Assembly: GCA_030700025.1 (NCBI GenBank)
Contig: JAUYKI010000008.1
Coordinates: forward strand, 1-57,912
Reading direction: 5' to 3'
Origin: a bacterium
GTDB taxonomy: Bacteria; Patescibacteriota; Minisyncoccia; UBA6257; 02-FULL-45-10c
DNA: 57,912 nt
Below are positions 2,365 to 50,269 of this stretch, one piece after another (positions within the stretch are counted from its first letter, which is position 1; each line of letters begins with the position of its first letter). Under the pieces are notes generated by a model. It searched no databases. It worked only from the letters and a program-made list of their open reading frames with translations, and was not told where the DNA came from. The position numbers were made by a program, and so were the translations under genes.

Positions 2365-2393
2365 TTGTCATAACGTCTTTTTTATGATATTAT
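2365..2393 (+). promoter_or_regulatory. Candidate sigma70-type promoter for the rlmN-like gene
   Basis: TTGTCA, 17 nt, TATTAT. AAGGAGG Shine-Dalgarno at 2419..2425. Confidence 0.35.
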
Positions 2394-2431
2394 ATCAGCA
2401 GTTCATTCATATTCCTATAAGGAGGCAATAA

Positions 2432-3286: not shown

Positions 3287-3320
3287 GCCGCGTTCAATAA
3301 CGCGGCTTTTTATTTTTTTT
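3287..3320 (+). terminator. Rho-independent terminator
   Basis: GCCGCGTT-CAAT-AACGCGGC hairpin followed by a T-run. Confidence 0.7.
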
Positions 3321-3368
3321 TCTATACTAATTTTTCAGAGCTGTGTTAAAAGATTTGCAGAGTTTAAA

Positions 3369-3992
3369 CTAATTAATAAAAGCGCTTTCGTAAAGCGGGG
3401 TTTTATCATCTTTAAATCTAAAAATATATTCGGTACTATAAAACTTTTGAGTAAATAATTTAGTAGCAATAGTATATTTTATTAAAAATTTACATTCTAT
3501 AGAATTAAAATTTTGAGGGATTGGAAAAACAAAAACCATTTCTTCGCCATTGCCAATGATTATTTTTCCTGCTTCTGGGAGCGCCTGACTGTCCTTAGGA
3601 CAAAATATTGAGTCATTTATCACCTGGGCTGGTAAGATTCCGACATTTTTAATACGAAGCATAAAATCAGTAGCCGACGGATGAATGCTCTTAATTACTA
3701 AGTATGGCCTATTGCGCAACTCAAATTCTGTATTTGCTCTATTATTTTGTAAGTAGGAAAAATATATTGTTGGTAGGATAATAATTAATGGGATAATTAT
3801 TCCAATAGTTTGAATTATAAAACTTTTTCTACTCTCTAGTATATTTTTTCTGTCTTGTCTTTGTTGAGTAGAATTAGTAATTATAACATCATCTTTATTA
3901 TTGTATAGGGTTTCTAATTCCCTCTGAATCTTAAAAAGATTCCAATCTTCACCAAATAATTTTTTAAAACATTCTTTTATTCTATTTATCAT
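3369..3992 (-). CDS. Hypothetical membrane protein
   Basis: Long ORF with one clear TM helix (IIQTIGIIIPLIIILPTIYF). No recognisable motif. AT-rich. Confidence 0.5.
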   Translation of the reverse strand: MINRIKECFKKLFGEDWNLFKIQRELETLYNNKDDVIITNSTQQRQDRKNILESRKSFIIQTIGIIIPLIIILPTIYFSYLQNNRANTEFELRNRPYLVIKSIHPSATDFMLRIKNVGILPAQVINDSIFCPKDSQALPEAGKIIIGNGEEMVFVFPIPQNFNSIECKFLIKYTIATKLFTQKFYSTEYIFRFKDDKTPLYESAFIN

Positions 3993-4148
3993 TAAAGTGA
4001 TTATTAAATATAATAATACAAATTACCCATATTTTACCCCAAAACCCCTCCCGCCGCAAGCGGGAAATAAATTGTTTGATTTTAGATTCAAAAGGAAGCA
4101 TAATTTATATATTCAACTTAGAGAAGCTCCATTTTAAGGCGGTATTGT

Positions 4149-4918
4149 ATGAAATTAAATCTTAACGAACAACTTGTAACTCATTACAAAAGCGCATCGC
4201 AAAAGGCGCGCATTTTAACAGAACAATGGGTTGATAATTCAATTTTTTGTCCGAATTGCGGACGATTGAATATAGACAAGTATCCAAATAATCAACCCGT
4301 TGCCGATTTTTACTGTTCGAATTGCAAAGAAGAATACGAGTTGAAAAGTAAGCAAAACACAATCGGTACAAAAATTGTAGACGGTGCGTATCGCACGATG
4401 CTTGAACGGCTGACAAGTAGTAATAACCCGAATTTTTTTCTGCTAAATTACGACTTATCAAATCTCGAAGTGATAAATTTTCTTGTTATTCCGAAACACT
4501 TTTTTGTACCAGAAATAATCGAAAAACGGAAGCCACTTTCGCCGACGGCTCAGCGTGCCGGTTGGGTTGGTTGTAATATCCTTCTACAAAGTATTCCGCA
4601 AACCGGTAAAATCTTTTTCATAAAAAATAAACGGATTGAGCCTAAAGAAAAAGTGCTTGCTGAATGGCAAAAAACACTTTTTTGCGAGAGGAGAAAGAAA
4701 TTTCTGCTAAGAGTTGGTTACTTGATACAATGCGAAGCATCGAAAAACTTGGAAAGCGTGAATTTATGCTTGAAGATATTTATGCCTTTGAAAAAGAATT
4801 GGGCAAACTTCACCCGGACAACAAGCACATTAAAGATAAAATCCGCCAGCAATTACAATTTTTACGCGATAAGGGCTATCTTGATTTCGTATCGCGTGGA
4901 TATTATCGGCTTATATAA
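4149..4918 (+). pseudogene. DpnI-like methyl-directed type IIM restriction endonuclease, split by a frameshift in a T6 tract (4678..4683)
   Basis: N-terminal part is frame 4149... (YKSASQKARILTEQWV..FCPNCG...PVADFYCSNCKEEYELKSK..GAYRTMLERL..NNPNFFLL...RKPLSPTAQRAGWVGCNI). The C-terminal winged-helix part continues in the -1 frame (ORF 4664..4918: FLREEKEISAKSW...HIKDKIRQQLQFLRDKGYL). Confidence 0.8.
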
Positions 4919-4924
4919 GAGAAT

Positions 4925-5104
4925 ATGACGAATCGAGATTTACAAACACAATACGACAAAATTTATTCTTATTTTAAAACTACTTACGAGCATTTTAGTG
5001 ATTTAGAATGGAACGGAAAAATTTTATTTGTTTGGAAAGACGAAAATATTACAGAAAAATATTCACTAAAAGATTTAACAGGATTAATTTTTAATGAGAC
5101 ATAA
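4925..5104 (+). CDS. Small hypothetical protein (59 aa, below the ORF-track cutoff)
   Basis: ATG 4925 to TAA 5104, immediately after the DpnI-like gene. No motif. Confidence 0.3.
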   Translation: MTNRDLQTQYDKIYSYFKTTYEHFSDLEWNGKILFVWKDENITEKYSLKDLTGLIFNET

Positions 5105-5176
5105 TAAATTAAGAAAATATAAAATTATAGAAAAATAAAAAAACCTCCTTTGGAAATTTTATGTTAAACTAAATTT

Positions 5177-5602
5177 ATGCCAGGGGTATCAAATCAAAAA
5201 ACTGAAGCGGCGCTTCGTGATAGTCTTGAAAAAAAAGGGGGGTTTAAATTAAGTCGGCAGTTAAAAAATGGCGAAACGGGTCCCGATATTATAGCCATAG
5301 AGAATAACAGCAAAGAATTCTACATAGAAGTTATCGGTTATAAAAAATCGCCACCAGCACGATCGCGAGATTTTTATACTGTATTTTTTGGAGCTATTTC
5401 TAGAATAAAAGATGGCGCCAAGCATTGTGTTATTGCCTTACCTGATTTATTTGAAATTGGTTTGCCGGCTCGCGTTCGTCAATATGGTAGATTGGCTTGG
5501 CAAAGAATTGGTCAAGCATTTCCGGAATTAGAAATTTGGCTCGTGGACGTTGATAAGAAAGAATATAAGAAAACTAAATGGAATGATTGGCTTAAAAATT
5601 GA
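5177..5602 (+). CDS. Hypothetical protein, possibly with a PD-(D/E)XK nuclease-like fold
   Basis: GPDIIAIE....YIEVIGYKK resembles a degenerate PD..ExK motif. No other signature. Confidence 0.45.
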   Translation: MPGVSNQKTEAALRDSLEKKGGFKLSRQLKNGETGPDIIAIENNSKEFYIEVIGYKKSPPARSRDFYTVFFGAISRIKDGAKHCVIALPDLFEIGLPARVRQYGRLAWQRIGQAFPELEIWLVDVDKKEYKKTKWNDWLKN

Positions 5603-5621
5603 GAAGCGGTAAAGTAAATTT

Positions 5622-6263
5622 ATGAAAAATCAGAATTTTAAAAAGTGGGGGAGATTAATCAAAAAAGTATTGAATGATTGTTGGGAATTTCGAAGCTTAT
5701 GCGAAAAACCTTTTGATAGAGGATTTATAGGAGAATTATTGGTTTTAAAACGATTATTGGAAAAATATAAGGCCCAACTTGGTTCTACTCGTGGCGAGTT
5801 TTTTTATGCCGGTAGTTCTAACGCGGAATGGGACATTAAGCTTAGATTTAATGGCAAATCTATACTATTTGATGCAAAAGCAACTACAACGCCAGCGTCG
5901 AAGTCAGATAGTAGACCCAAATGGGTTCGACAGAAAGCGAGGAATTTTTGTAATATTAAGATCGGTAAAGATGGAAAACAACACGTATCTCTATTTTCAA
6001 AAAATAATTTTAATCCGAATCTATTTTATGTTTTTGTTGATGTCATAGTATGGTTAGAAAACCGCCATGCTAATTATTATATTCTTTCAGATAAAGAGGC
6101 AAAATCAATATTTGGTAAAAAGTATAAAAAGGATCATGATGGAAAAATAAGAAGAAATGATACTGCGGATTTTCATGTTGAATACAATGATGTCAAGAAT
6201 TTTAAAGACAGGTATCCTAAGTTTCAAGCGACAAAGCTTCGCCATAAAAAAATAGGAGAATAA
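5622..6263 (+). CDS. Hypothetical protein, possibly with a PD-(D/E)XK nuclease-like fold
   Basis: GELLV...EWDIKL...LFDAKAT fits the E..D..(D/E)xK spacing of restriction-endonuclease-like folds. Confidence 0.45.
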   Translation: MKNQNFKKWGRLIKKVLNDCWEFRSLCEKPFDRGFIGELLVLKRLLEKYKAQLGSTRGEFFYAGSSNAEWDIKLRFNGKSILFDAKATTTPASKSDSRPKWVRQKARNFCNIKIGKDGKQHVSLFSKNNFNPNLFYVFVDVIVWLENRHANYYILSDKEAKSIFGKKYKKDHDGKIRRNDTADFHVEYNDVKNFKDRYPKFQATKLRHKKIGE

Positions 6264-6765: not shown

Positions 6766-6799
6766 AACATTCTAACATTCTGCAGAATGTTAGAATGTT
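6766..6799. repeat. Palindrome family copy (type A variant) overlapping the stop codon of ArsR-1
   Basis: AACATTCTAACATTCTGCAGAATGTTAGAATGTT, a perfect 34-bp palindrome. Confidence 0.9.
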
Positions 6800-7059
6800 T
6801 GCATAAACTTTAAAAATGATTTTCCGTAAGGCGAGAGCGAATGGGTAACCTGGCGGCCTTGATACTTTTTGTTTAAAAGACCGGCGTTAACTAAAGAGCG
6901 GGTATGCTGGGATATAGTTTTAAAATTACCGTTAAGCTCATTAGCAATCCCTTCAACTGTAATGCCATCTCTTTGATTTACGGTGTATATAATAGCTATG
7001 CGCCAATGATTGGCAGCTCCCTTAAAATAACGCTCTAATTGCTTTGGTGTTTTTCCCAT
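6790..7059 (-). CDS. ArsR/SmtB-family winged-helix transcriptional regulator (paralog 1)
   Basis: FKGAANHWRIAII....ITVEGIANELNGNFKTISQHTRSLVNAGLLNKKYQGRQVTHSL matches the ArsR HTH pattern. Contains no Cys. Confidence 0.8.
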   Translation of the reverse strand: MGKTPKQLERYFKGAANHWRIAIIYTVNQRDGITVEGIANELNGNFKTISQHTRSLVNAGLLNKKYQGRQVTHSLSPYGKSFLKFMQTF

Positions 7060-7142: not shown

Positions 7143-8612
7143 TTAAAGCTCCTCCAAATCTAAAATTTTATCAATTCGGATTTGTTTAATAAATTCCGGG
7201 ACGTGGCTGACTAAAATCATTCCGCCCGCGTATTTGTCCAAAGCCGCGGCAATTATCGGAATATGCCGGAAGTTAATATGGTTAGTCGGTTCGTCCAGAA
7301 TCAGCAATCCCGGCTTTTGAAGCGCCAGCCGCGCGAATGCCACCAATCCCTTCTGGCCTTCGGATAAATTCCCGATTTTTGCCCGCAAGATATGCTCGTC
7401 AATTAAAAACCCCGAGGCAATGGAGCGGAGCCGTTCCTGGGTCATGTCCCACTCCATAAGATCGCTGCCTGCCGATGCCAGCGACTCATACACGGTGTCT
7501 TCAAAGTTCAGAGTAGAGAAGTCCTGGCGGTAATAGCCGACCCGGATGCCCTTAGTAATGTGTTCGCCTTTAGCGTGGCCGGTTGCCAATTTTTCCAAAA
7601 GAGTAGTTTTGCCGATTCCGTTCGGACCGGTTAAAAGCAGATGTTCGTTTTTCTTTAAAATAACATTTACTTTTTTAACTGTTGGTTTGTGGTTTTTTAT
7701 CACGGAAACCGCGGTTAATTCCAAAAGCTGTCCGCTGATGTCCTCCTGGCAGGGGATAACAAACTTTCGGATGGTTTTATCTTCCTGGCGGACGTCCACC
7801 ATTTCTTCTTCCAATTCCTCAATTTTTTCCCGCATTTTCCTTGCCACGTCCCGCATGTGCCCGCCTTTTTGCCCGAAAAATCCTGCCTGCACCTTGCGGT
7901 GCGCGATATCGCTTTCCAGCCGGGCATTTTTTCTCCGTTCATTTTCCAGCCGGACTTTTATCTGCTCCACCACGTCAAAATAGTTTCCGACGTATTGTTC
8001 CACTTTCCGGGTAAAAATATCCAGATACAAAACGCCCTGGGTAAACGCGTTAAGGAAATCGGCATCATGGGAAATAACCACGCAGGTTTTTTTATAGTCT
8101 ATTAAAAATTTAGTCAGATGGGCGATGCCGGATTTGTCCAAGTTATTAGTTGGCTCATCCAGCAGAAGCAAATCCGGGTCCTGAATCAGCGCCGACGCCA
8201 AAAGAAGCCGCGCCTGCTGTCCGCCGGAAAAAGATTTAATTATCCGGTCATGCGGGGCTTTTAAGTTGACCACCTCCAAAACATCGTCAATCCGCGGGTC
8301 AATATCGTAAACCTTTTGAGAGAAGCATTTCTCAAAAAACTTTTGGATAGTCAGTTCCATCTGATCTCTGGGAATTACCTGTCTGGCGGTGGCAACGGTC
8401 AAGCCGTCCTCCAGGCTGATCTTCCCGGAATCCGGCTTCAACGCTCCGGTAATCAGCTGGAACATCGTGCTTTTACCGGCGCCGTTCTGCCCCATGAGAG
8501 TAACTTTCGCCCCCCGGCGGATGGAAAAATCCGCCTCTTTTAAAATTGGCTTATTATGCCCGAATTCAAAATTAACATTATTGAACCTTACGATTACTTC
8601 TTCTTTAGCCAT
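7143..8612 (-). CDS. ABC-F family ATPase (two ABC domains, no TM domain)
   Basis: Walker A GQNGAGKST and GPNGIGKTT. Signatures FSGGQQARL and LSEGQKGLV. Walker B LLLLDEPTN and LLILDEPTN. Basic interdomain linker. Confidence 0.9.
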   Translation of the reverse strand: MAKEEVIVRFNNVNFEFGHNKPILKEADFSIRRGAKVTLMGQNGAGKSTMFQLITGALKPDSGKISLEDGLTVATARQVIPRDQMELTIQKFFEKCFSQKVYDIDPRIDDVLEVVNLKAPHDRIIKSFSGGQQARLLLASALIQDPDLLLLDEPTNNLDKSGIAHLTKFLIDYKKTCVVISHDADFLNAFTQGVLYLDIFTRKVEQYVGNYFDVVEQIKVRLENERRKNARLESDIAHRKVQAGFFGQKGGHMRDVARKMREKIEELEEEMVDVRQEDKTIRKFVIPCQEDISGQLLELTAVSVIKNHKPTVKKVNVILKKNEHLLLTGPNGIGKTTLLEKLATGHAKGEHITKGIRVGYYRQDFSTLNFEDTVYESLASAGSDLMEWDMTQERLRSIASGFLIDEHILRAKIGNLSEGQKGLVAFARLALQKPGLLILDEPTNHINFRHIPIIAAALDKYAGGMILVSHVPEFIKQIRIDKILDLEEL

Positions 8613-8665: not shown

Positions 8666-8699
8666 AACATTCCGACATTCTCAAGAATGTTGGAATGTT
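8666..8699. repeat. Palindrome family copy (type B, imperfect) overlapping the stop codon of ArsR-2
   Basis: AACATTCCGACATTCTCAAGAATGTTGGAATGTT. Confidence 0.85.
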
Positions 8700-8956
8700 C
8701 TTATAAACTTTATAAACGTTTCTCCGTAGGGCGAAAGGGTATGTCCCACGTTGCGGCCCTGATATTTTTTATTGAGAAGTCCCGCTTGAACTAGCCGTCT
8801 CGTATGCTCAGAAACGGTTTTGAAATTTTTATCCAAATTTTCAGAAATCATTTCCAGGGTAATGTCGGGCCTTTGAGAAACTAAAAGCAAAATCTCAATA
8901 CGGGAGTGATTAGCCGCGCCCTTGAAATGCCTTTCTAATTGCTTCGCCGTTTTCAT
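8681..8956 (-). CDS. ArsR/SmtB-family winged-helix transcriptional regulator (paralog 2)
   Basis: Collinear with 6790..7059, with a large fraction of identical residues by eye (QLER.FKGAANH.RI....NFKT.S.HTR.LV.AGLLNKKYQGR.V.H.LSPYG). Confidence 0.8.
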   Translation of the reverse strand: MKTAKQLERHFKGAANHSRIEILLLVSQRPDITLEMISENLDKNFKTVSEHTRRLVQAGLLNKKYQGRNVGHTLSPYGETFIKFIRTFQHS

Positions 8957-8972
8957 GTCTGTTTATCCTACC

Positions 8973-9010
8973 ACAACATTCCGACATTCTCAAGAATGTT
9001 GGAATGTTGT
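8973..9010. repeat. Palindrome family copy (type B), about 17 nt upstream of the ArsR-2 start and downstream of the 1041-aa gene
   Basis: ACAACATTCCGACATTCTCAAGAATGTTGGAATGTTGT. Confidence 0.85.
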
Positions 9011-9048
9011 TTTGCGGCACTTTTGGCTTGGGGAAGGATTTTAAATAA

Positions 9049-12000
9049 TTAATCGGAACCCAGCATTCTTTTTTCCAGGCTGGAGATCAGCGAAACGCGT
9101 TCACGATTCAATCGCGAGTAATCGGAGATATGGTTTAAGCAATTCCGCAGAAGCTGGGGGTGATGGTTCAGCAGTTTCTGGAAATCATTTTTGCCGATAA
9201 ATAAGGCAACGGTTTCTTTATGGGCTTTTACGGTGCAAATCGCCCCAGTGTTTAAAATAACGGACCGTTCGCCAAAAAGCCCGAATTCTAATGGTTTGTC
9301 AGATAATTCAATCGGCTCAGTCTCGGAATCGGGTTTGGCCTGGCTTAGGATAACGGAGCCGCGGATTAGGATATAAACGCCCGCGGTTTTTTTGCCTTGC
9401 CGGATCAAACAATCGCCGGCGCTGAATTTCTTTTCCGAAGCTTTGTCGGCTAAAAATATCCGTATATCTTCGGGGTTAATTCCGTTAAATATCTCCAATC
9501 CAAAAACATTATTACCAACGCTGTTTTTTCTTTGAATCAAAACATTAGCGAGAAGCCTCCGGAGCTTTGGATAGGCGGTTTTCAACTTTCCTAAATCCTT
9601 TCTTTGGATTTCCAACAGGCGGCAGGAAGTTTCCGCTATCACTGTGGCAGTCCGCTTCCGATTTTTTTTCTCAAATACAATCGCTTCGCCGATGATAGCG
9701 CCCCGGTTGCTGATTTTCGCGATTTCCACTCCGCCTACCAAAACCCGGCAGGTTCCCTGGACTAAAATAAATAAAGAATTGGCTGGGTCTCCCTCGGAAA
9801 CGATAACCCCGCCCTTTGGGCGATCCACGGCTTTAAGATGCTGGGCTAAAATCCGCTGTTCACGGCGGTTGGATTTTAGATAATCAACCAGAGGAATATT
9901 TTTAAAATCCAAATTTTCACCAATCGGATAATCGGGCAGTTCGCACAGTTTTTCAATTTCCGCGCCCAGCATTTCCGGATTTATTCTGCCGGACCGGTAT
10001 TCTTCCACCCAGTATTTTAATTTTTCATTCAGTTCATAGAGGCTCGGAAAATTTCGATTGATGATTTTTAATTGGTCATTCCAATAAGAACGCCGCGGGA
10101 GGCACTTTTCCGAATCCAGGGCATCCAGCATTTTAAAAAGCGCGCGGATAAAGTTTTTCGTTTCGGATAAGAAGCCTCTCAATTCCTTATGCGTAACCAC
10201 GGCTTTTTCTTTTATAAAAATTTCCCCTTGGTTAACCTCTCCTTGGCTGATTAGCTGGGGTTCATAAACAATGCCCGGCTTCACCTGTGCCAAAGCGGTT
10301 TTTCTAATCAAGTAATTTAAAGCCCGCTCTTCTCTTTTGGACGAAAGGTTATAAAGCCCGGCCAGATGCCGGAATAAGTTAGACATGTCCAACAAGGCCG
10401 GATCTTGACCATCTGGAACAGGATTATATAAATTCAAGCTCGTTTTTTGAGGGCTGATTTTTTTGGCTAATTTTTCAAATTGGTCAGACAGCGCCAGGAC
10501 TTGTTTTGAGTGCTTAGAGAAAAAAATAGGGGAGCGGGCATCGTCTACGCCAAGCAGGGACAAAAGATAATTCCCTAAATATCGGCGCCTTTGCGCGGAA
10601 AATTGTTTTTCCACATCCGGGTTTTTTATTCCTTTTACTTTTGCCAGTTGCCGCAAAATTTTGATAAAGCCCGCTCCCTCGTAGCCAAAAAGGTTTTCAG
10701 AATACTTGCCGGAAGCGGAATGGTACGGACCCCGGTATTTCGTGAAAGAAACAGTTTCCGGGTCAATCAAATGGCCGGTCAGTGAATAATTTCCGACTGA
10801 CCATGCTCCCATTAATATCCGATAGGCAAAATATTGCGCGTCTAATTTGGCGTATTCGTCCAGAACTTTTGGAAAATCAACCGCAATGGACGGGGAATAT
10901 TCAATGTGGCTGGGCCGGTCCAGCGCGCCATCGTCAATCCGCACTAGCAACGCCGAAGGAATCGGATTGGCGCTCCATTTATATTGTTCGGTTTCTTTAA
11001 GCGCGATAACTACGGGGTGATGGACGGCATTTTTAGTAAAGTGATTCATCCACCTGGAAAGCACTACCCGCCGGAATGATCCCACTAATTCCATTTTTCC
11101 GGTGCTGTGGCTGGGAATCAGGCTAACACAAAGAGTTGTTTTACCGACGCCCATGACATTAAAATTCTTTCCGTAATAAACCGCTCTTCCGGAACCGAGA
11201 TTCCCGCTTAATCCAATGCCCGTAGAATCTTTTTGCCGGTCCGCGTAAACCGTGATTGGTTTGGAAGCCGGATTTTTATAGTTGAGCGCTATCGCGAAAT
11301 TCCGGACTTGTTCCGCCAAATCGCCTTCGTAGCCGCGATTTTTAAAATACGCCTGATCCGTATAAACTATTTCGTAATCTTTCGGATCCAGCCGCCGCGC
11401 CGTTTGCGGAACAAAAATAGATTTGCCCAATCTTTGCATAGCCAAGGGCATTTCCGCTAAATCGCTGGCCAAGTCAATGTAAGGTTTCCGAGCAATAATC
11501 CACCAAGCCGGATCGCCCTGCCGGCCGAAAGATTTATCCCAATATTGCTGTTTCAGGTAATTTTCGTAATAATCCCGCATTAATTCTATAACAATGAATC
11601 CGCTGTTTTGGCGTTTGGTTAATTGTTTTAAGGCTAATTTTTGGCTCGGGTATTGGCTGATGATAAACAAGTCGGGTTTTAATTTTTGGACAAAATCTTT
11701 CCAAAGGACGATCGTGGCCAAAACTCCGTGAATATAATCCCGGTTGCTTACGGAATCATAAAGTTTTTTAATGCTGGGCGGAACTTCCCATCCCGCTTCT
11801 CTTTCTTTGGAAAATAAAGAGGGCTCTTTTCCGCGCATGGCAAACGCTACCGCCATATCGTCAAACGGATGATTAGACAGCAGGGCATCCACCCGCGAAG
11901 GAATATCCTGGCCGATTTGCACGTCCTGTAAAAATTTTCTGACTAATTTTACGGAGGCTCGCGGCAAGATTTGTTTATATAATTTTTCCACGTGCGCGGC

Positions 12001-12174
12001 GGCGGAACTGTCCGGCTCGATTAGAATAACGGTCCCGGTAAATCCAATGAGGGCCAGCGCGTCGCCAATTTTTTTCTCGTAACCGGGCGCCACCTCCACT
12101 ACTACGCCATTAACGGGAATTGGGTTTTCTTGAAGCAATCTTTGCCAAATGTAGGAAACGAGCTTAATGTCCAT
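9049..12174 (-). CDS. 1041-aa multidomain protein: N-terminal Rossmann/SAM-MTase-like region, central SelO/YdiU-like (protein-kinase-like fold) region, and two C-terminal cyclic-nucleotide-binding domains
   Basis: N-terminus has VVVEVAPGYEKKIG...VILIEPD...LLSNHPFDD. The middle has LGSGRAVYYG..NVMGVGKT...STGKMELVGSFRRVVLSRWMN...ALLVRIDDGALDRPSHIEY...GAWSVGNYSLTGHLIDPETVSF, collinear with SelO motifs. The C-terminus has two CAP_ED-like units (GDPANSLFILVQGTCRV...GAIIGE and GKKTAGVYILIRGSVIL...FGLFGE). Confidence 0.6.
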   Translation of the reverse strand: MDIKLVSYIWQRLLQENPIPVNGVVVEVAPGYEKKIGDALALIGFTGTVILIEPDSSAAAHVEKLYKQILPRASVKLVRKFLQDVQIGQDIPSRVDALLSNHPFDDMAVAFAMRGKEPSLFSKEREAGWEVPPSIKKLYDSVSNRDYIHGVLATIVLWKDFVQKLKPDLFIISQYPSQKLALKQLTKRQNSGFIVIELMRDYYENYLKQQYWDKSFGRQGDPAWWIIARKPYIDLASDLAEMPLAMQRLGKSIFVPQTARRLDPKDYEIVYTDQAYFKNRGYEGDLAEQVRNFAIALNYKNPASKPITVYADRQKDSTGIGLSGNLGSGRAVYYGKNFNVMGVGKTTLCVSLIPSHSTGKMELVGSFRRVVLSRWMNHFTKNAVHHPVVIALKETEQYKWSANPIPSALLVRIDDGALDRPSHIEYSPSIAVDFPKVLDEYAKLDAQYFAYRILMGAWSVGNYSLTGHLIDPETVSFTKYRGPYHSASGKYSENLFGYEGAGFIKILRQLAKVKGIKNPDVEKQFSAQRRRYLGNYLLSLLGVDDARSPIFFSKHSKQVLALSDQFEKLAKKISPQKTSLNLYNPVPDGQDPALLDMSNLFRHLAGLYNLSSKREERALNYLIRKTALAQVKPGIVYEPQLISQGEVNQGEIFIKEKAVVTHKELRGFLSETKNFIRALFKMLDALDSEKCLPRRSYWNDQLKIINRNFPSLYELNEKLKYWVEEYRSGRINPEMLGAEIEKLCELPDYPIGENLDFKNIPLVDYLKSNRREQRILAQHLKAVDRPKGGVIVSEGDPANSLFILVQGTCRVLVGGVEIAKISNRGAIIGEAIVFEKKNRKRTATVIAETSCRLLEIQRKDLGKLKTAYPKLRRLLANVLIQRKNSVGNNVFGLEIFNGINPEDIRIFLADKASEKKFSAGDCLIRQGKKTAGVYILIRGSVILSQAKPDSETEPIELSDKPLEFGLFGERSVILNTGAICTVKAHKETVALFIGKNDFQKLLNHHPQLLRNCLNHISDYSRLNRERVSLISSLEKRMLGSD

Positions 12175-12258
12175 GAATTAAGTATAACAATCTAGGGGGC
12201 TTTATAGATCGGATCTTTTGATTGAAAAATGCCCCGTGATAATTTATAGTATCACTAT

Positions 12259-12355
12259 TGCCGGATCATCCCTGGCCCCTCGTCGGGCAAGCGGAACAGA
12301 CTAATGGCAAAATAATGCCGGATCATCCCTGGCCGGGCAGGCTAATGGTAGAATA
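12259..12355 (+). repeat. Two degenerate direct copies of the 5' part of tRNA-Gln (TGCCGGATCATC ... CTAATGG), each with an insert in the D-loop position
   Basis: 12259..12309 and 12316..12355 share AATAATGCCGGATCATC and CTAATGGTAG with the genuine tRNA at 12611. Both lack anticodon and T arms. Confidence 0.8.
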
Positions 12356-12357
12356 CA

Positions 12358-12606
12358 ATGAAGTACTTTGTTTATATTTTACAAAGCTTAAAAGATGATG
12401 GGTTTTACGTAGGAATGACCACTAACCTTGAAAAACGATTAAATTATCACAATAAGAGGTTGGTAAAATCGACAAAGCATAGAGTTCCCTTTAAACTTAT
12501 TTATAATGAAAGCTTTGGTGATCGAAAAACAGCTAGAGACAGGGAGAAATATTTAAAGAGCTATAAAGGATCCAGAGAAAAGTTAACAATCCTGGAAAAT
12601 TTATAA
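12358..12606 (+). CDS. GIY-YIG nuclease family protein (small, YhbQ/UPF0213-like)
   Basis: YFVYILQS..DGFYVGMTTNLEKRLNYHN....ST..R.PFKLIY.ESF....A..REKYLK. Confidence 0.85.
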   Translation: MKYFVYILQSLKDDGFYVGMTTNLEKRLNYHNKRLVKSTKHRVPFKLIYNESFGDRKTARDREKYLKSYKGSREKLTILENL

Positions 12607-12610
12607 ATAA

Positions 12611-12681
12611 TGCCGGATCATCTAATGGTAGGATAGCGGACTCTGAATCCGCTCATCTTGGTTCGAATCCAAGTCCGGCAG
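12611..12681 (+). tRNA. tRNA-Gln (anticodon CTG)
   Basis: Manual cloverleaf: acceptor TGCCGGA/TCCGGCA (U1:A72, G73 as in bacterial tRNA-Gln), D arm ATCT..GGAT, anticodon stem GCGGA/TCCGC with loop CTCTGAA, and T arm CTTGG-TTCGAAT-CCAAG. CCA is not encoded. Confidence 0.85.
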
Positions 12682-12796
12682 CACCAGTCAGCGCAGTATC
12701 GAGGGACCGAGACCCTTCGGTTCTAGACCGAGGCGTCTCAAACTCACTGACCTCTTTTTCCTACAATGTCATACCGGCTGAGCGCCGTATTCAAAC

Positions 12797-12823
12797 CAAA
12801 AAATCGCCTTAGGCGATTTTTTT
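12797..12823. terminator. Bidirectional rho-independent terminator
   Basis: AAAAAATCGCC-TTA-GGCGATTTTTTT. Confidence 0.65.
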
Positions 12824-12934
12824 GGTTTACATTGCCTGTCAAAGTTTATAAGATGGGCCCCTGAAATTTTTAAGGTAGTAAATTTTTATTTTTTTAAACT
12901 ATTTCAATTGAAACACCCCCCCCTCCATTCCTTC

Positions 12935-13738
12935 CTATCTGTAAATTTTTGATAAAATATTTTTTAAATGAGTACCATAAGATCTAATTTCATCAATATT
13001 TACCAATGTAAATTCATCGTGAATAACATTATCTGTGAGTGTTTTATATCTTTGAACCTGACTCAATTCCTGAATTAAACTTTGATTTGCCCTATCTCCC
13101 TTTATAGGGTTATTTTCAATATGTTTTATCAACACACTTAATCCGTCGCCTTTAAGAACTAAACCTCTTCCTTCTATTTGAAGATAATATTTTAGCGCCA
13201 AAAGTAGAATAGTTCTATATTGATGTGCGATTAAATTTGAATATGATAAAAATTTTTCTTTTGGCAAATCATTTATTTCGTCTATGAGAATTTTCATCTT
13301 ATCTGATGCTTTATTCGGTTTATCAATAAAAGTTAATAATTGCTGTAATAAAAATTGTTTCCCAGCTTCCATTTTTTTTCTTGGTCTAATAAAGTTCACC
13401 TGAGCATCTTTTAAATAAATTCCGCTATGATAGATGAAACTATTATGAGCGGGCGCCTTATCAATTTTACCTTTCACGTGGGCTAAATAGTAAAAAAATT
13501 TATCAATTTCCGGATATTGTTCAATACTAGACTTACATATAATAGCAGGGTCAGAATTGCCCTCTTGATCGTAAAACTTAAGCGCCAGCTCTCCACCCCC
13601 AAGATTAAATGGGGCTACGAGGATCAAGTCATCTTCAAATTCATGCCCTAAAAAAGTTGAGTGAATATCCTGCCGCTGAAATGGCGTTTTATTTTTTAGG
13701 GCTTCTTTTATTTGATTTAAATTGAGTGTAGTAGTCAT
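12935..13738 (-). CDS. Hypothetical protein (last gene of the RM/Vsr operon). The C-terminal helical region has one Rx4H motif
   Basis: 267 aa, AT-rich, with a 7-nt gap to the upstream gene. IRSYGTHL near the C-terminus is the only HEPN-like hint. Confidence 0.5.
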   Translation of the reverse strand: MTTTLNLNQIKEALKNKTPFQRQDIHSTFLGHEFEDDLILVAPFNLGGGELALKFYDQEGNSDPAIICKSSIEQYPEIDKFFYYLAHVKGKIDKAPAHNSFIYHSGIYLKDAQVNFIRPRKKMEAGKQFLLQQLLTFIDKPNKASDKMKILIDEINDLPKEKFLSYSNLIAHQYRTILLLALKYYLQIEGRGLVLKGDGLSVLIKHIENNPIKGDRANQSLIQELSQVQRYKTLTDNVIHDEFTLVNIDEIRSYGTHLKNILSKIYR

Positions 13739-13745
13739 TGTAAAA

Positions 13746-14066
13746 TTAATTTCTATTTAATAATGAATCTATATATTTTTTATTTATTATATGAGTAATA
13801 ACTCCGCCGATAATCATTATTGGTAAGCTTAAAAGCAATAACTGATAACCCTCTGATAATTTATTCCATCCAATATTAAAAAAGTTTGATACATAAGATA
13901 TCTGTTCAAAAAATACTGAATTTAATATCAAGGTTATTAAAATGGCAAAAATTAACGATACAACATAAATAAGCCTTTCTATTATATTTAAAAGCTTATT
14001 GAATTTTTTAGGAAAATCACTGATCTTTTCGTCTCCGTTTATACCCAAACTTTTTAAGTTTTTCAT
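13746..14066 (-). CDS. Small two-TM membrane protein
   Basis: Two hydrophobic helices (LIYVVSLIFAILITLILNSVFF and LLLLSLPIMIIGGVITHII). Confidence 0.5.
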   Translation of the reverse strand: MKNLKSLGINGDEKISDFPKKFNKLLNIIERLIYVVSLIFAILITLILNSVFFEQISYVSNFFNIGWNKLSEGYQLLLLSLPIMIIGGVITHIINKKYIDSLLNRN

Positions 14067-14128
14067 AAATTTAAAATCGGCATTTAGCCGATTTATATAA
14101 AATAACAGAGAATTGTTAGATAGGCAAA

Positions 14129-14653
14129 TTATTCTTTAATATTTGCAGTTGCAATAAGAGCTGCTTTAAAAAAAGTTTCTCTATCTTCTAAATCTAAATT
14201 CAGATTCCCGGGGAGAGAAAAAAGCTTTTTTTGTTCCTCGCTAGAGAAAATATCTGGGTTCTTCATAAAAAACCATACATAAAATATTAAGAATAATTTT
14301 GGCAATTTTTTAGTCAATCCTTGATATAATCGAACACTATCGTATAGATAAAAATTAGAAAGTTCCGTATTAAAATTTAATATGTTATCCGCATCTTTAT
14401 CAGCGTGCTTGAAAAAATTTTTTGCTTCGTTCATTTTAATACTAATTTCTTTTCGTTTTTCTTCTTTAATCATTGTCATTCCCCACTGAGTAACGCTTTG
14501 AAGATTTTGGGCCTTACCCAAAGTTTCTAATATCTCATGTGCTGCCCTGGTCAAAGTATGTATTGAAACTGGCTCATTATTTTTAAAAAATAAAAAAATA
14601 GCAGTTTCGAGTTGTCGCTTAGCGGCTTCAATTTTTGGAATACTCATTTTCAT
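14129..14653 (-). CDS. Hypothetical all-helical protein
   Basis: 174 aa with an 11-nt gap after vsr. No recognised motif (AAHEILETLGK, NFFKHADKDAD). Confidence 0.5.
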   Translation of the reverse strand: MKMSIPKIEAAKRQLETAIFLFFKNNEPVSIHTLTRAAHEILETLGKAQNLQSVTQWGMTMIKEEKRKEISIKMNEAKNFFKHADKDADNILNFNTELSNFYLYDSVRLYQGLTKKLPKLFLIFYVWFFMKNPDIFSSEEQKKLFSLPGNLNLDLEDRETFFKAALIATANIKE

Positions 14654-14664
14654 AAATTCTTTAT

Positions 14665-15066
14665 CTATTTCAAAAATTTAACAATTTCATTAACCGCCTT
14701 ACTCGGATTTTTCTTTATTTCATGTTCCCAAATTCTAAAAATCTTCCACCCTTGTTTTTTATAGTATTTAGAAACTTCTTTGTCCCTTGCCGTATTCTTC
14801 GCAATTTTTTGTTTCCAATAAGTTTTATGATTAGTTGGAATGCGACAATGTTTTTTACAGCCGTGCCAAAAACAAGAGTCAACAAATATAACAGTTTCAT
14901 GCCGTTTCAAAACAATATCCGGCTTGCCAAAGTATGTGCCGGAGTTTTTGCGATAGCGAAAACCGCGTTTCCAAAGTGCTTTGCTAAATAATGCTTCAAT
15001 CTTGCTGTCTCGGCTTTTTATCCGAGACATTATTTCGCTTCGCTTTTGTTTTGAAACAGTATCCAT
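14665..15066 (-). CDS. vsr: Very short patch repair endonuclease (Vsr)
   Basis: RSEIMSRIKSRDSKIE...FRYRKN....GKPDIVL.....IFVDSCFWHGC...P..N..YW..KI..N..RD matches the Vsr family. Confidence 0.9.
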   Translation of the reverse strand: MDTVSKQKRSEIMSRIKSRDSKIEALFSKALWKRGFRYRKNSGTYFGKPDIVLKRHETVIFVDSCFWHGCKKHCRIPTNHKTYWKQKIAKNTARDKEVSKYYKKQGWKIFRIWEHEIKKNPSKAVNEIVKFLK

Positions 15067-15088
15067 ACATACGCTAAATTTAAATTTA

Positions 15089-16156
15089 TCAATCAGCGGG
15101 CGTGACTATTTTATCGTACCTGCGCTTCGCCATAAACGGCACAATTTCTTTACTTGATGGAAATTCTCCGACAAATTCTCGCCCAACATCTTGCAGTAAT
15201 TTTGCGCCGAGATTAGCCCTGTATTTTTTACTCAAACAAAGTTTATACCAATCATCTAGATCGTTAATGGTAATGACGCCTTGTATCCGCTCACTCCACC
15301 CAACTTGTTTGAGCAATGCCTCAATCGATTCTCGCTCGGTATCAACACAAACAATCACAATTCTGTCAGAAGTTATATCATCCGCGATATCTTCCATGAG
15401 TTCCGGGGTAAGCGTAAGATGCTTAACTTGAATTGCCGGACCAAAGTTAGCCCAAATGTCTAAACCTCTGTCTGAGGCATTTGTTACGCCGACGCGATAC
15501 AGTGCGGCGGGCGAAATAAGTCGAGTTTGCTTTGCGTCAATGCCAAGAACCATTTTAATAAACCTTTCAAAGTCCTTCAAAATTTCCTTATCTTTATTTC
15601 CAATCTCCAAAGTTACTTGCGCTTTCAACGCGCGGACTATTGTCGTAAAAAGAGCATAAACTAAAATTTCGTACATTTTATCTACGCTACGGCGCAACCC
15701 AGGCGTAGTTTGAAAAATAGAAACCAGCTTTTTGAGATCAAAGGTGTCCGGCGTTGATTTTCTGATATAGTCCTCAACTTCTCGAACCGATGAAAGGCGC
15801 GCTTCCAACGCTTTGTAAATATGTGCCTCAACAACACCCTTGCCTTTCCTATTTGTCTCGCCAAGTTTTACAAGCAATTCAGGCGGCATGGCGTTGGCTT
15901 CAAAAACATTGTCCTGATATTTTTGGCTTGAGGTGCTTCGCCGGCCAACCAAAAGCAAAGACACTTCGTCTCGCCAACGCTTGGAAATATTTCGGTATGA
16001 TTCTAAGTCGCTCAAATCCCAGCCCCGCTCTGTTCTGTGATGATACAAAATTTCGGCAATCTGAATTGGTTTATATAAATGAACACGCGATTTGCGTATT
16101 ACCAAGTCCAACGCTATTTTTGAAAGATTGCTTTTAGTGGGCATAAATTTTTTCAA
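15089..16156 (-). CDS. Type II restriction endonuclease partner of the m5C methyltransferase (family not determined)
   Basis: 355-aa ORF overlapping the MTase gene by 23 nt and followed by vsr. No motif could be assigned by eye. Confidence 0.55.
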   Translation of the reverse strand: MKKFMPTKSNLSKIALDLVIRKSRVHLYKPIQIAEILYHHRTERGWDLSDLESYRNISKRWRDEVSLLLVGRRSTSSQKYQDNVFEANAMPPELLVKLGETNRKGKGVVEAHIYKALEARLSSVREVEDYIRKSTPDTFDLKKLVSIFQTTPGLRRSVDKMYEILVYALFTTIVRALKAQVTLEIGNKDKEILKDFERFIKMVLGIDAKQTRLISPAALYRVGVTNASDRGLDIWANFGPAIQVKHLTLTPELMEDIADDITSDRIVIVCVDTERESIEALLKQVGWSERIQGVITINDLDDWYKLCLSKKYRANLGAKLLQDVGREFVGEFPSSKEIVPFMAKRRYDKIVTPAD

Positions 16157-17147
16157 TTTTTTCCTCTCTATTAAATAAATTTCTTTGTGCGGTCTTATGT
16201 AGTTGCGGTTTTTGATTCATCGCTTGCATCATCGCGCGCGCGACAGCCTCAATTTTCGGAATAACAACGCTATTGCCAGCTTGTTTTCTAACCTGTGTGT
16301 CAGGCACAACCATTTTGAAAGTATCGGGATAGCCCTGTAAGCGCAACATTTCTCTCGGCGTAAGACGCCTTTCTCCGTTTACCGTCAAATAATTATACGA
16401 GCCGTTGGCGCGCAAAGCGCAAGAAAAAGGATGTATGCCAAGATTGCCGCCTTTATTTTCATGCAATACAACAGGACGAACGGTAATCTTTTTGTTTTGC
16501 TCTTTTAACTTTCTTTCAAGTTTTTTACGGAAGTAGTCGCTTAAAAAATGTTTTTTATCAATCTGATCGTTCGGCTCCAAAATATTAGAAAGTGTTTTTG
16601 TTTCTGCCCCGTTTTTGGGAAATTCAAAAGGATAATTATCTTTGAAGCCGACAATCATTATTCGCTCTCTTTTTTGCGGAACACCGAAATCAAGCCCATT
16701 GAGAACCTTGTAATGAATAAAATATCCTAAATTTTCCAAATGCTCTAAAATAACTTTGAAAGTTTTACCCCCATCATGAGTGGTGAGCTGTTTTACATTT
16801 TCCAACAAAAACGCTTTCGGTTGTTTCGCTTTCAAAATTCTTTCAACATCAAAAAATAAAGTCCCGCGCGTGTCGGCAAATCCCAATTTATTGCCAATAA
16901 TACTAAACGCTTGGCAAGGAAAACCGCCAGTCAATATATCGTGATCTGGCACTTCATCGGCAACAACTTTCGTGATGTCCCCGAAAGGTTTTTCGCCAAA
17001 ATTTGCTTCGTACATGACTTGGCACGGCTCGTCCCATTCGGAAGTGAAAACGCACTTGCCACCAACTCGCTCAAAAGCGATACGGATACCGCCAATGCCC
17101 GCAAACAGGTCTATAAATTTGAATTTTTTACCATTTCTATTTGTCAT
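16134..17147 (-). CDS. dcm: DNA (cytosine-5)-methyltransferase
   Basis: FIDLFAGIGGIR (motif I), GGFPCQAFS (IV), ENV (VI), QKRERIMIVGF (VIII), GNSVVIP (X). Confidence 0.95.
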   Translation of the reverse strand: MTNRNGKKFKFIDLFAGIGGIRIAFERVGGKCVFTSEWDEPCQVMYEANFGEKPFGDITKVVADEVPDHDILTGGFPCQAFSIIGNKLGFADTRGTLFFDVERILKAKQPKAFLLENVKQLTTHDGGKTFKVILEHLENLGYFIHYKVLNGLDFGVPQKRERIMIVGFKDNYPFEFPKNGAETKTLSNILEPNDQIDKKHFLSDYFRKKLERKLKEQNKKITVRPVVLHENKGGNLGIHPFSCALRANGSYNYLTVNGERRLTPREMLRLQGYPDTFKMVVPDTQVRKQAGNSVVIPKIEAVARAMMQAMNQKPQLHKTAQRNLFNREEKIEKIYAH

Positions 17148-17216
17148 GGGTCTATTTTACCGAATCATTTTATTTATTCATAATACCCGATTTTGATAAA
17201 TTTTCCGCCACTAAAA

Positions 17217-17831
17217 CTATTTTTTATCTTGAGGTTCGTACTTCGTTTGATAACCAGTATCTTCTTTTGGCCTTAAAATATTAGGGAAATTAATATCTGC
17301 CTTAACATCAAAAGAAACCTTTTTAAATAATTGGAAAGTTTCGTATGGATCAGTAATGTGGCTAAGCGTATACGGAACATTTTCAGAATAAGCCGAGCTA
17401 TCTTTAGTTCCTGGATGCCCGATAATGCGATTGGCATAGATTGCAATACTGCCGGAATTCTTGCCAAAAATTTTATCCACAATACCGACATCCACCCTGG
17501 AGCTTTCTACCTTATCGTAATCTACAAAGTCAAAGTCTCTGCCGATTAATCCACTTTGTAAAATAACTCTTTTATCAGTAATCACATACCATATATTTTT
17601 ATAACTTAGCATCGAAATAAAGGGATTTATAAAGGCAATAAAAAAGCCGAAAGCGCCGAAAAAGATAGTGCCTAGGTTCCAAGATGGTTGGTTAAAAGCG
17701 AAAGCAATACCAATTAGAACTAATCCTACAAAGATTGAAATGAACATTTTGAAAAGGTATGGCAAAAACTGCGGTTGGTTTTGCCAGATAACTTTTTCAT
17801 TAGTATTTAAAACCTTATCTATTTCATACAT
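17217..17831 (-). CDS. Membrane protein with a bacterial PH (bPH_2/YdbS-like) domain
   Basis: Two TM helices followed by WYVITDKRVILQSGLIGRDFDFVDYDKV..SRVDVGIVDKIFG..GSI. Confidence 0.5.
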   Translation of the reverse strand: MYEIDKVLNTNEKVIWQNQPQFLPYLFKMFISIFVGLVLIGIAFAFNQPSWNLGTIFFGAFGFFIAFINPFISMLSYKNIWYVITDKRVILQSGLIGRDFDFVDYDKVESSRVDVGIVDKIFGKNSGSIAIYANRIIGHPGTKDSSAYSENVPYTLSHITDPYETFQLFKKVSFDVKADINFPNILRPKEDTGYQTKYEPQDKK

Positions 17832-18229
17832 ATGAAGTTATTATAACATAATTAATATTTATGATAAGATTAAGCCATGCAAAGAATTTTATGGGTGATT
17901 TTAATTATTGTTAGTTTTGCATCATTTCTTGGCATTGGGGTCGGCAAGTAAGGGCCCTCATTTGCATTTCAGTTATAAATTAGCCGGCTTTGATAAAAAT
18001 AATGGATATTTAGGATGTTCCAACCCCTCCGAGTATTTTGTTGGTAAAATAACATACATTTTAAATTAAGACATATTTTACGAGACACCACAAAAGTGTC
18101 TCATTTGTCTCATTTTAGCTTTAAAACAGCCCCGACCGAGACCCATCATGAGACAGCTCTAAAAAATGTTATAATTCCCTCTAAAAGGTTGGTCTCAGAC
18201 CGGAGAACACAGCCAATTAAAAATGCGTC

Positions 18230-49159: not shown

Positions 49160-50263
49160 ATGAAAACCATCGTCCTGACTGGCGGTCCCTGCGCCGGCAA
49201 AACCACTGCCCGTAATTATCTTTATGAAAAACTGTCCGATATGGGATTCTCTGTTATTTTCATGCCGGAAATACCCACGCTGGTTATTAACGCCGGACTT
49301 GATCCGCGCGATCCCAATAAACGATTCAGCCGTCTGGAATTCCAGAATTTCCTGCTTCAGCTTCAAATCCAATCCGAAGAAGCTTTTAAAAAAGCCCTAA
49401 AAATCAAAGGCGGAGAAAAACGGATAATTATTTTTGACCGCGGAGCCATGGATTTCCGCGCCTACACCGAACCGGACGAGTTCAAAGAAATTCTACGGCG
49501 CAATAACTGGAATATCGTCCAGCTTCGCGACGAGCGTTATGACGCGGTATTCCATCTGGTAACGGCCGCTGAAGGAGCTCCGGAATTTTATAACTTAAAC
49601 AATCCGGCTCGTTTGGAAAATCCGGATCAGGCCAAAGAAACCGACTGCAAAACCAAACAGGCTTGGCTGGGACATCCGCATTTGCGGGTCATAGATAATT
49701 CCACGGGCTTTGACGATAAAATGAAACGTCTGCTGAACGAAGTCCGCCGGACGCTCGGCGTGCCCGCGGCTATTGAAACCGAGAGAAAATTTTTGGTTAC
49801 CAACGCTGTTACTCCGGACGCGATTCCCGTGCCGATGCAAATCATAGAAATTGAACAGTTCTACATCGCGGGCGCTTCGGTCCGATTCCGCCGCCGCAGC
49901 CAGGGCTGCCATGGAACGGTTTATTACCGGACGGAAAAACTGGATACCGATTCCCCGCTTTCCCGGATCGAAACCGAAACCCAGGTAACTGCCAGAGAAT
50001 ACTATCAGGCGTTAGCCCAAAAGAATCCGGAAACGGACATTATTCAAAAACTCCGGGCTTGCTTCCTGCATCAAAACCAGTATTTTGAACTGGATATTTT
50101 CATCAATCCCGCGAGATTGCGATGGCTGACGCTTTTGGAAATTGAATTGACCGAAGAAAACGATAAAATTGAAATTCCGGACTGGCTCCTGCCGGTTACG
50201 GAAGTTACCGCCGACCCGAGATATAAAAACTTTGAATTAGCCCGAGCTCTGCCCCGCCGATAA
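49160..50263 (+). CDS. Fusion of a P-loop NTPase/kinase-like domain (AAA_28/NadR-like) with a C-terminal CYTH (triphosphate tunnel metalloenzyme) domain
   Basis: Walker A LTGGPCAGKTT and FDRGAMD. The CYTH signature IETERKFLV (ExExK) starts the C-terminal half. Confidence 0.6.
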   Translation: MKTIVLTGGPCAGKTTARNYLYEKLSDMGFSVIFMPEIPTLVINAGLDPRDPNKRFSRLEFQNFLLQLQIQSEEAFKKALKIKGGEKRIIIFDRGAMDFRAYTEPDEFKEILRRNNWNIVQLRDERYDAVFHLVTAAEGAPEFYNLNNPARLENPDQAKETDCKTKQAWLGHPHLRVIDNSTGFDDKMKRLLNEVRRTLGVPAAIETERKFLVTNAVTPDAIPVPMQIIEIEQFYIAGASVRFRRRSQGCHGTVYYRTEKLDTDSPLSRIETETQVTAREYYQALAQKNPETDIIQKLRACFLHQNQYFELDIFINPARLRWLTLLEIELTEENDKIEIPDWLLPVTEVTADPRYKNFELARALPRR

Positions 50264-50269
50264 AAAAAT

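Follow-up and report, generated by a model that had tools for sequence, protein, structure and literature searches.

The window analysed here, contig JAUYKI010000008.1 (57,912 nt) from the genome of an ultra-small patescibacterium, encodes on its minus strand at 9049..12174 a 1041-aa protein in which three folded modules are joined in one polypeptide: a class-I methyltransferase (MTase) fold, a divergent kinase fold of the SelO/YdiU type, and a tandem of cyclic-nucleotide-binding (CNB) domains like that of PKA-R. This three-part protein is real and previously undescribed, and its nucleotide-transfer chemistry is probably of a new, signal-gated kind. The complete open reading frame (ORF), from ATG to stop codon, is exactly the one named in an original prediction made from the sequence alone, and the fusion proposed there was upheld by both profile and structure searches. 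The motifs on which the prediction relied are all present in the translation, and in the order given: VVEVAPGYEKKIG (residues 25-37), ILIEPD (50-55), SNHPFDD (100-106), LGSGRAVYYG (326-335), MGVGKT (341-346), STGKMELVGSFRRVVLSRWMN (357-377), ALLVRI...RPSHIEY (408-426) and MGAWSVGNYS / NYSLTGHLID (455-471). We looked both for the SelO-like and CAP_ED folds on which the prediction stands, finding the two of them, and for signs that the architecture is common and already annotated; it is rare, with 13 proteins at the 90% cluster level, and the only names that databases give to it are ‘cyclic nucleotide-binding domain-containing protein’ and ‘CRP-like’. Neither the family nor the architecture was found described in full-text searches of the literature, and a review of bacterial pseudokinases mentions canonical SelO alone.

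Searches of Pfam and NCBIfam with the 1041-aa protein returned only matches related to cyclic nucleoside monophosphates (cNMPs), with zero matches in either database for residues 1-760. Structure searches with a full-length AlphaFold2 (AF2) model (predicted local distance difference test (pLDDT) 88.1, pTM 0.73) were dominated by CNB matches, and became informative after residues 1-760 were re-modelled separately (pLDDT 92.0, pTM 0.79). With this shorter model, Foldseek ranks 1-9 against the PDB were all SelO/YdiU (6eac, 6iii, 6k20, 6lna, 9l29, 9jym and 9jyn; E 5.4e-12 to 2.9e-10), with TM on target of 0.54-0.65 over ~560 columns, corresponding to the entire SelO chain. The result is specific, since only 28 PDB chains reach E <= 1e-3 with this model. 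The domain thus recognised spans residues 233-748 (9931..11478, minus strand) and consists of an N-lobe extension, a catalytic core and a helical C-terminal region.

Relatives of the protein provide a sequence-level bridge to SelO. When 52 of them were scanned one by one, ten reached the Pfam SelO model PF02696 at E <= 1, and P0036 (26.4 bits) and P0081 (22.9 bits), but no others, exceeded the 22.8 that is its gathering score. In these matches, which run collinearly, profile positions 83-177 fall within the N-lobe and positions 215-289 about the active site. Alignment of the family with the single E. coli SelO sequence by hhalign was likewise collinear, and weak (E 0.032), whilst in a one-target test HMMER matched E. 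coli SelO to the 138-sequence family profile with an E of 3.2e-5, and both methods gave the same register. The predicted collinearity of the middle region with SelO landmarks is therefore borne out by Foldseek, by PF02696 in the relatives, and by both alignment methods.

We then used this register to read the active site, taking residue roles from the SelO/YdiU literature (PMC7359531, 10.1101/692707) and counting conservation, unless another alignment is named, across 138 family proteins from several phyla. The nucleotide-phosphate pocket (10897..11247, minus strand) is made up of a Q-loop, a Gly-rich loop, beta3, alphaC and an Arg pair. In the Q-loop YADRQKD (residues 310-316), Q314 corresponds to SelO Q75, which contacts the alpha-phosphate, and is invariant (138/138). 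The residues that hold the beta- and gamma-phosphates are similarly retained: none of the 138 proteins departs from R330 in the Gly-rich loop LSGNLGSGRAVYYG (SelO R87) or from R412 in the segment ALLVRIDDGALDRPSHIEY (SelO R170), and the position of R420 in the latter segment (SelO R177) is Arg in 137 and Lys in one. The catalytic-loop equivalent, MGAWSVGNYSLTGHLID (residues 455-471; 10762..10812, minus strand), carries both metal ligands, N462 (SelO N247, P. syringae N253) and D471 (SelO D256, P. syringae D262), each invariant in 138/138, together with S459, which takes the position of the alpha-phosphate contact N244 and does not vary among the 52 sequences of alignment A1. Where SelO has its general base (D246/D252), the window protein has G461 (10792-10794); at this position the family has Gly in 110 proteins, Ser in 23, Asn in four and Ala in one, and never Asp. 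The suggestion that the catalytic Asp has become Gly while the metal-binding Asp of the LID motif is kept thus holds throughout the family, in the register that hhalign and HMMER share. The label ‘pseudokinase’ should not be taken to mean inactive, given the phosphate- and metal-binding residues kept across the 138 proteins. Invariance of these ligands across phyla leads us to expect an enzyme rather than a dead scaffold.

A second departure from SelO was overlooked in the original prediction. The pair formed by the beta3 Lys (K107/K113) and the alphaC Glu (E130/E136) is absent from the window protein, in which M341 of FNVMGVGKT replaces K107, with K345 nearby, and R369 of ...FRRVVLS replaces E130. 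Positions 341 and 369 covary: 72 of the 138 proteins have Lys with Glu, 54 sequences of the candidate phyla radiation (CPR) clade have Leu, Met, Ile or Asn with Arg, and the remaining 12 have K341 with Ser, Asn or Cys at 369. The shift from K341/E369 to (L/M)341/R369 corroborates the alignment register, and this pattern looks less like decay than like a compensated rebuilding of the clamp on the gamma-phosphate, in which an Arg on helix C would stand in for the beta3 Lys. The family also has invariant acids of its own, D312, D316 and E499, of which D312 and E499 are invariant in 138/138. As D312 and D316 flank Q314, whose YdiU equivalent contacts the alpha-phosphate, both are candidate substitutes for the absent base.

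The two cNMP-binding units that had been claimed for the C-terminal part of the protein were confirmed by profile, sequence and structure searches alike. Pfam cNMP_binding (PF00027) matched two stretches with 99.7 bits against a gathering score of 27.5 (E 9.4e-29); phmmer against the PDB aligned both domains to the CNB-A/B tandem of the PKA regulatory subunit and PKG (E 9e-11); and Foldseek with the full-length model returned the same PKA-R/PKG tandem with an E of about 1e-15 (2.6e-15 quoted for CNB-A). CNB-A comprises residues 770-890 (9505..9867, minus strand; best Pfam stretch 786-864) and has a canonical phosphate-binding cassette, GEAIVFEKKNRKRTATV (residues 829-845, window 9640-9690), with G829-E830...R841-T842-A843; the G-E and R-T-A-(T/S) elements are kept in 11 of 13 orthologs. 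CNB-B, the second Pfam stretch, comprises residues 891-1010 (9145..9504, minus strand); its cassette, GERSVILNTGAICTVKA, retains G-E and is missing the cyclic-phosphate Arg in all 13 orthologs. A flexible linker (residues 749-769; 9868..9930, minus strand), with pLDDT below 50 at 749-755, separates the tandem from the SelO-like domain, and family members that have no CNB domains stop at about residue 750, which is the position of the linker. The chain closes with a C-terminal helix (residues 1011-1041; 9052..9144, minus strand), assigned by DSSP to residues 1006-1038, and ends in ...EKRMLGSD.

At the other end, residues 1-232 (11479..12174, minus strand) form a class-I (Rossmann) MTase-fold domain according to Foldseek. 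With the 1-760 model, ranks 10-50 in the PDB were exclusively S-adenosylmethionine (SAM) methyltransferases, with E-values between 3e-4 and 2e-3 and a TM on target of no more than 0.64, including PcaA/UmaA, MnmM (TM on target 0.62-0.64), NSun6, VCP-KMT, Bud23, GNMT, M.TaqI and Tfb1m, and the N-domain was again MTase-like in a search of the BFVD viral structures. The MTase-like motifs claimed for the N-terminal ~230 aa are present, namely VVEVAPG (residues 25-31) as putative motif I, IEPD (52-55) as putative motif II and the post-beta4 motif SNHPFDDM (100-107). The sole N-domain match in a PDB hmmsearch was KsgA (3tqs, E 1.1), covering motifs I-II, and hhalign with E. coli RsmA aligned VEVAPG with VEIGPG and IEP with IEL (E 0.019). 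Inspection of motif I showed E27-V-A-P-G31, with one Gly only, followed by the acidic end of beta2, E53-P-D55, and these RsmA/KsgA alignments are sub-threshold. Assignment to the KsgA/Erm subfamily was dropped, as motifs I and II alone align. Stand-alone homologs of this domain are numerous (237-267 aa), and when they are included, P30, G31, K35, F45, G47, H102, D105, D106 and Y175 remain invariant.

The distribution of these modules suggests that the first two belong together. An exhaustive profile search of 1.84 billion representative proteins yielded 839 matches at E <= 1e-3, a number that falls to 391 with a cut-off of 1e-10 and to 192 with one of 1e-30, and recruited no canonical SelO proteins; the family is thus small and distinct. 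All of its named proteins are ‘hypothetical’ or ‘cyclic nucleotide-binding domain-containing’. Besides N-domain plus core (730-930 aa), it includes core alone (~500 or 620-670 aa) and N-domain alone. N-domain and core are fused in most members, and the two-domain module moves as a unit into other fusions: with radical-SAM domains in P0064 and P0074, with a glutamine-dependent NAD+ synthetase and CN-hydrolase in P0081, and within the giant proteins P0055 and P0056 (7620 and 4071 aa, the latter named Omnitrophota). P0129 and P0135 combine the core, without N-domain, with APH-type kinase domains. One locus (L002) encodes the N-domain separately, in a translationally coupled gene of 240 aa that has a 4-bp overlap with the core gene (49% identity, E 3e-89), and such a Rosetta-stone arrangement indicates that the two act together. 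Core-only forms with no N-domain gene nearby occur at two loci (L003 and L007). At the second of these (L007 1523-9299), the distant core-only P0054 keeps the K/E pair and is clustered, all on one strand, with a pair of small paralogs (209 and 179 aa) and with a protein of the adenosine/AMP-deaminase family that is 860 aa long.

Homologs of residues 1-760 number 54 at the 90% cluster level, and every named organism among them is patescibacterial (Vogelbacteria, Harrisonbacteria or ‘Patescibacteria group’). Besides the window protein, 12 full-length orthologs were found, with 54-68% identity. In a neighbour-joining tree without bootstrap, the 13 CNB-bearing proteins fall in one clade of 16, from which we tentatively suggest that the CNB tandem was probably gained once, in one Parcubacteria clade.

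Taken together, these results are best read as describing a cNMP-gated nucleotidyl-transferase with non-SelO acceptor chemistry, a reading to which we give about an even chance. The SelO-like domain would bind its nucleotide in the ‘flipped’ mode of SelO: the nucleotide's beta- and gamma-phosphates would be bound by R330, R412 and R420, N462 and D471 would hold two metals, and Q314 and S459 would be placed at the alpha-phosphate; the alpha-beta phosphoanhydride would then be cleaved and the nucleoside monophosphate (NMP) moiety transferred. The acceptor is probably not a Ser, Thr or Tyr hydroxyl activated as in SelO, because the general base is Gly here and never Asp in the family. Either another invariant acid (D312, D316 or E499) could serve as base, or the acceptor may be one that needs none, such as a phosphate, a carboxylate or water. 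In the CPR clade, the Lys-Glu grip on the gamma-phosphate has given way to Leu or Met with R369, and this Arg is likely to be in direct contact with the phosphate. The MTase-fold domain would be an obligate partner acting on the same target, probably binding SAM, or else an adenosyl ligand or substrate. By analogy with PKA and PKG, a cNMP bound at CNB-A, with its intact cassette, would switch the enzyme on or off, and CNB-B, which has no cassette Arg, may be a structural or relay domain.

Several observations weigh against this reading. The window protein does not match PF02696 even at E <= 10, and PDB sequence searches, whether with the protein or with the family profile, found no SelO. For the N-domain, MTase sequence profiles gave only sub-threshold matches (Methyltransf_23, 24, 25, 33 and MTS; E 0.015-0.23) and the Gly-rich motif I is degenerate (A-P-G), such that the assignment as an MTase, drawn from the modelled structure, is supported by fold and sub-threshold motif matches. 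Four stand-alone N-domain homologs in alignment A2 (P0165, P0171, P0173 and P0182, the named ones from Bdellovibrionales) have signal-peptide-like hydrophobic starts, which are unexpected for a SAM-dependent enzyme and counsel caution over MTase activity. No conserved operon partner was found across the loci of seven relatives, and hence no hint of a substrate, and no nucleotide cyclase was found among the 39 window ORFs scanned. Finally, the equivalents of K107, E130 and D246, three residues essential in SelO, are all gone from the window protein, which may thus be a catalytically silent nucleotide binder.

This last point leads to the first alternative, which we regard as unlikely: that the SelO-like domain is a true pseudoenzyme, a nucleotide- and metal-binding allosteric or scaffold module, with the MTase-fold domain carrying out the chemistry and the cNMP acting as a second input. 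In YdiU, most mutations in the active centre completely abolish activity, and mutation of D246 abolishes self-AMPylation (10.1101/692707), so the triple loss speaks in its favour, as does the N-domain's own set of strictly invariant residues, H102, D105, D106, K35 and Y175. Retention of N462, D471, the phosphate-binding Args and Q314 throughout the 138 proteins (with R420 in all but one) argues the other way, however, and D312 and E499 are invariant too, with no SelO counterpart to account for them. The loss of the Lys/Glu pair is offset by an Arg, which is not what random decay would produce. Core-only forms without an N-domain gene nearby moreover imply that the core must function alone.

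A second alternative, which we hold to be quite unlikely, keeps the domain active as a cNMP-gated nucleotide or dinucleotide pyrophosphatase, for example one converting NAD+ to nicotinamide mononucleotide and AMP, in which water would be the acceptor and no activating Asp would be required. Complexes of YdiU with NAD (9l29, 9jym and 9jyn) are among the top structural matches, and NADase activity of SelO/YdiU has recently been reported (PMC13391479); that activity, however, requires a C-terminal Cys/Sec-Ser-Ser tail (PMC13391479), whereas the present protein ends in ...MLGSD. The fusion of P0081 to an NAD+ synthetase fits such a role but is one case. NUDIX genes lie within 5 kb of the ortholog at three loci (L002 1173-1580, L003 4421-4846 and L004 10571-11098), yet such genes are common and their proximity is neither tight nor within the same operon. 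This explanation would also leave the MTase-fold partner without a role.

A more elaborate form of the nucleotidyl-transferase reading, decidedly improbable in our view, is a ‘nucleotidylate-then-methylate’ machine with a kinase-fold chemistry new to description, in which the SelO-like domain, having no general base, would transfer NMP to a non-hydroxyl acceptor and the MTase-fold domain would methylate the product or recognise it through its adenosyl pocket. Candidate acceptors would be a phosphate on a nucleotide, on an RNA 5' end or on a metabolite, and in one Parcubacteria clade the machine would have come under direct cNMP control, with which an epibiotic bacterium could possibly respond to signals from its host.

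Highly improbable, lastly, is a Pycsar- or CBASS-like anti-phage effector in which a cyclic nucleotide, produced upon infection by a cyclase from elsewhere, would activate a toxic SelO-like NMPylase through the CNB domains: the CNB region does score best against Pycsar effector models in PADLOC (PycTIR, 84.5 bits, E 1.9e-24) and the gene sits between two low-GC islands with HaeII restriction-modification, Vsr and DpnI-like genes, but the PADLOC match is confined to the generic CNB domain (residues 775-883), neither the neighbourhood nor the scanned ORFs contain a cyclase, the gene has native GC, unlike the islands, its orthologs lie outside any defence context, among housekeeping genes (for instance a ClpB-like ATPase, a GTPase and an MFS transporter), CNB domains are missing from most of the family, and the combination that marks a Pycsar effector, a CNB domain with a TIR or transmembrane effector beside a PycC cyclase, was not found at the window gene.

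The genomic surroundings were examined for functional partners of the SelO-like gene. Downstream on the same strand lie an ArsR gene (8681-8956), an ABC-F gene (7143-8612) and a second ArsR gene (6790-7059). The prediction had placed the SelO-like gene as the upstream, same-strand neighbour of this cassette, which is correct as to position, but the partnership is not conserved: the cassette was found beside none of the orthologs (0/6 loci), and a functional link was rejected on this ground. The 92-bp gap between the two (window 8956-9051) contains an inverted repeat, AACATTCCAACATTC...GAATGTCGGAATGTT, at about 8965-9010, which overlaps a promoter-like -35/-10 pair, and no terminator-like site was found in it. 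The repeat resembles an ArsR operator, and the ArsR/ABC-F/ArsR cassette therefore probably forms a unit of its own that regulates itself. We also discarded TrmB/AAA_17/Gfo-Idh-MocA synteny as a source of partners, as it is confined to a pair of close relatives that are 72% identical, and the window does not have it. Small GTPase genes lie just downstream of the ortholog at three loci (L003 7661-8230, L005 11424-11993 and L006 8235-8639); like the NUDIX genes, they may reflect lineage synteny rather than a functional link.

A CYTH fusion protein and possible cyclase had been pointed out at 49160..50263, and this link is weak. Its CYTH match scores 18.9 bits, below the Pfam threshold of 23.2; the gene product belongs chiefly with the AAA_28 P-loop proteins (E 7e-20), and the CYTH call was not reproduced at E <= 1e-3 in a 52%-identical ortholog on the Harrisonbacteria contig L008. 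The gene order YchF, AAA_28 ... PMT (window 47731-53229) is common to that contig (L008 558-12358), where the SelO-like gene lies inside the YchF-PMT block, ~3 kb from AAA_28. In the window the distance is 37 kb, indicating that either the SelO-like gene has moved or the block has been rearranged. A gene for a LigT/2H-family phosphoesterase lies at 26676-27245 (E 1.4e-14). Enzymes of this family have 2',3'-cyclic phosphates as substrates, and the gene may be of interest should the CNB domains bind a non-canonical ligand.

The SelO-like gene has a GC content of ~0.445, equal to the bulk of the window, and is flanked by two low-GC islands (0.34-0.39, against ~0.45 elsewhere). The island at 12000-18000 carries Vsr (14665-15066), a HaeII endonuclease (15089-16156) and a C5 DNA methylase (16134-17147); that at 2000-6000 carries a DpnI-like gene (4149-4928) and a radical-SAM gene (2432-3286), and a HicB-like gene (1872-2339) is listed with it. 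An 82-aa GIY-YIG nuclease gene (12358-12606, plus strand) ends 5 bp before a tRNA-Gln(CTG) gene (12611-12682, plus strand).

SelO is among the best examples of a ‘pseudokinase’ that proved to be an enzyme, and its repertoire has been widening, to AMPylation, UMPylation and NAD+ hydrolysis. The family described here retains the pocket for a flipped nucleotide but has lost the general base, and one of its clades has re-engineered the Lys/Glu clamp, making it a natural test of which residues are truly required by the SelO fold and of which other acceptors can be served. We infer that the window protein works in a SelO-family-like way, yet it falls short of SelO proper on three counts, since it does not reach the Pfam threshold and has neither the K/E pair nor the general base. 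Direct fusion to PKA-type sensors would make it the first cyclic-nucleotide-gated SelO-like enzyme that we could trace, and would point to cNMP signalling in genome-reduced Patescibacteria, where regulation is poorly understood. Some 800 ‘hypothetical’ proteins from Parcubacteria, Omnitrophota, Riflebacteria and other groups gain a structural and mechanistic annotation, of relevance to the pseudokinase and AMPylation field and to CPR biology.

Among known systems, SelO/YdiU (PF02696; PDB 6EAC, 6K20, 6LNA) is the closest to the central domain, with which it shares the whole-domain fold (TM 0.64 on target) and collinear landmarks. Sequence identity is just 12-13%, however, and the window protein misses the Pfam threshold that defines the SelO family. 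The base-fixing loop differs, D312, D316 and E499 are new invariant acids, and the Cys/Sec-Ser-Ser regulatory tail of SelO is absent. The wider family, like SelO, keeps the K107/E130 pair, whereas in the CPR clade K107 has become Leu or Met and E130 Arg. Unlike SelO, the window protein also has an MTase-fold domain at its N-terminus and CNB domains at its C-terminus.

The N-domain shares the Rossmann-type fold of class-I SAM MTases, its closest motif match being the KsgA/RsmA/Erm rRNA adenine dimethyltransferases, with which it appears to have in common motif I (E-h-(G/A)-P-G), the acid at the end of beta2 (IEPD against IELD) and an N-x-P-F-like motif after beta4. It differs from class-I MTases in reaching no MTase Pfam model and in having one Gly left in motif I; the aromatic position of N-x-P-F is Leu in most stand-alone homologs, and the signature H102-P-x-D105-D106-M is particular to the N-domain family. 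As to the pairing of the two modules, nidovirus NiRAN is likewise a very divergent SelO-like kinase fold whose nucleotidyl transfer is coupled to methyltransferases (PMC7359531, PMC8863163), but, unlike the window family, it keeps all SelO catalytic residues, including the Asp (PMC7359531). Searches of the BFVD viral structures returned no specific relatives, only generic methyltransferases and kinases, and the analogy with NiRAN and its cap methyltransferases would be one of logic only.

The sensor finds its counterpart in PKA-R and PKG, which share with it two consecutive CNBs over ~270 columns and the G-E...R-T-A cassette of CNB-A. It departs from both in lying C-terminal rather than N-terminal to the kinase-fold domain, in a CNB-B without the cassette Arg, and in having no inhibitor or pseudosubstrate segment that we could identify in the window protein. 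As in PKG, sensor and kinase-fold catalytic domain share one polypeptide, but the domain that the sensor would regulate is SelO-like rather than a phosphotransferase.

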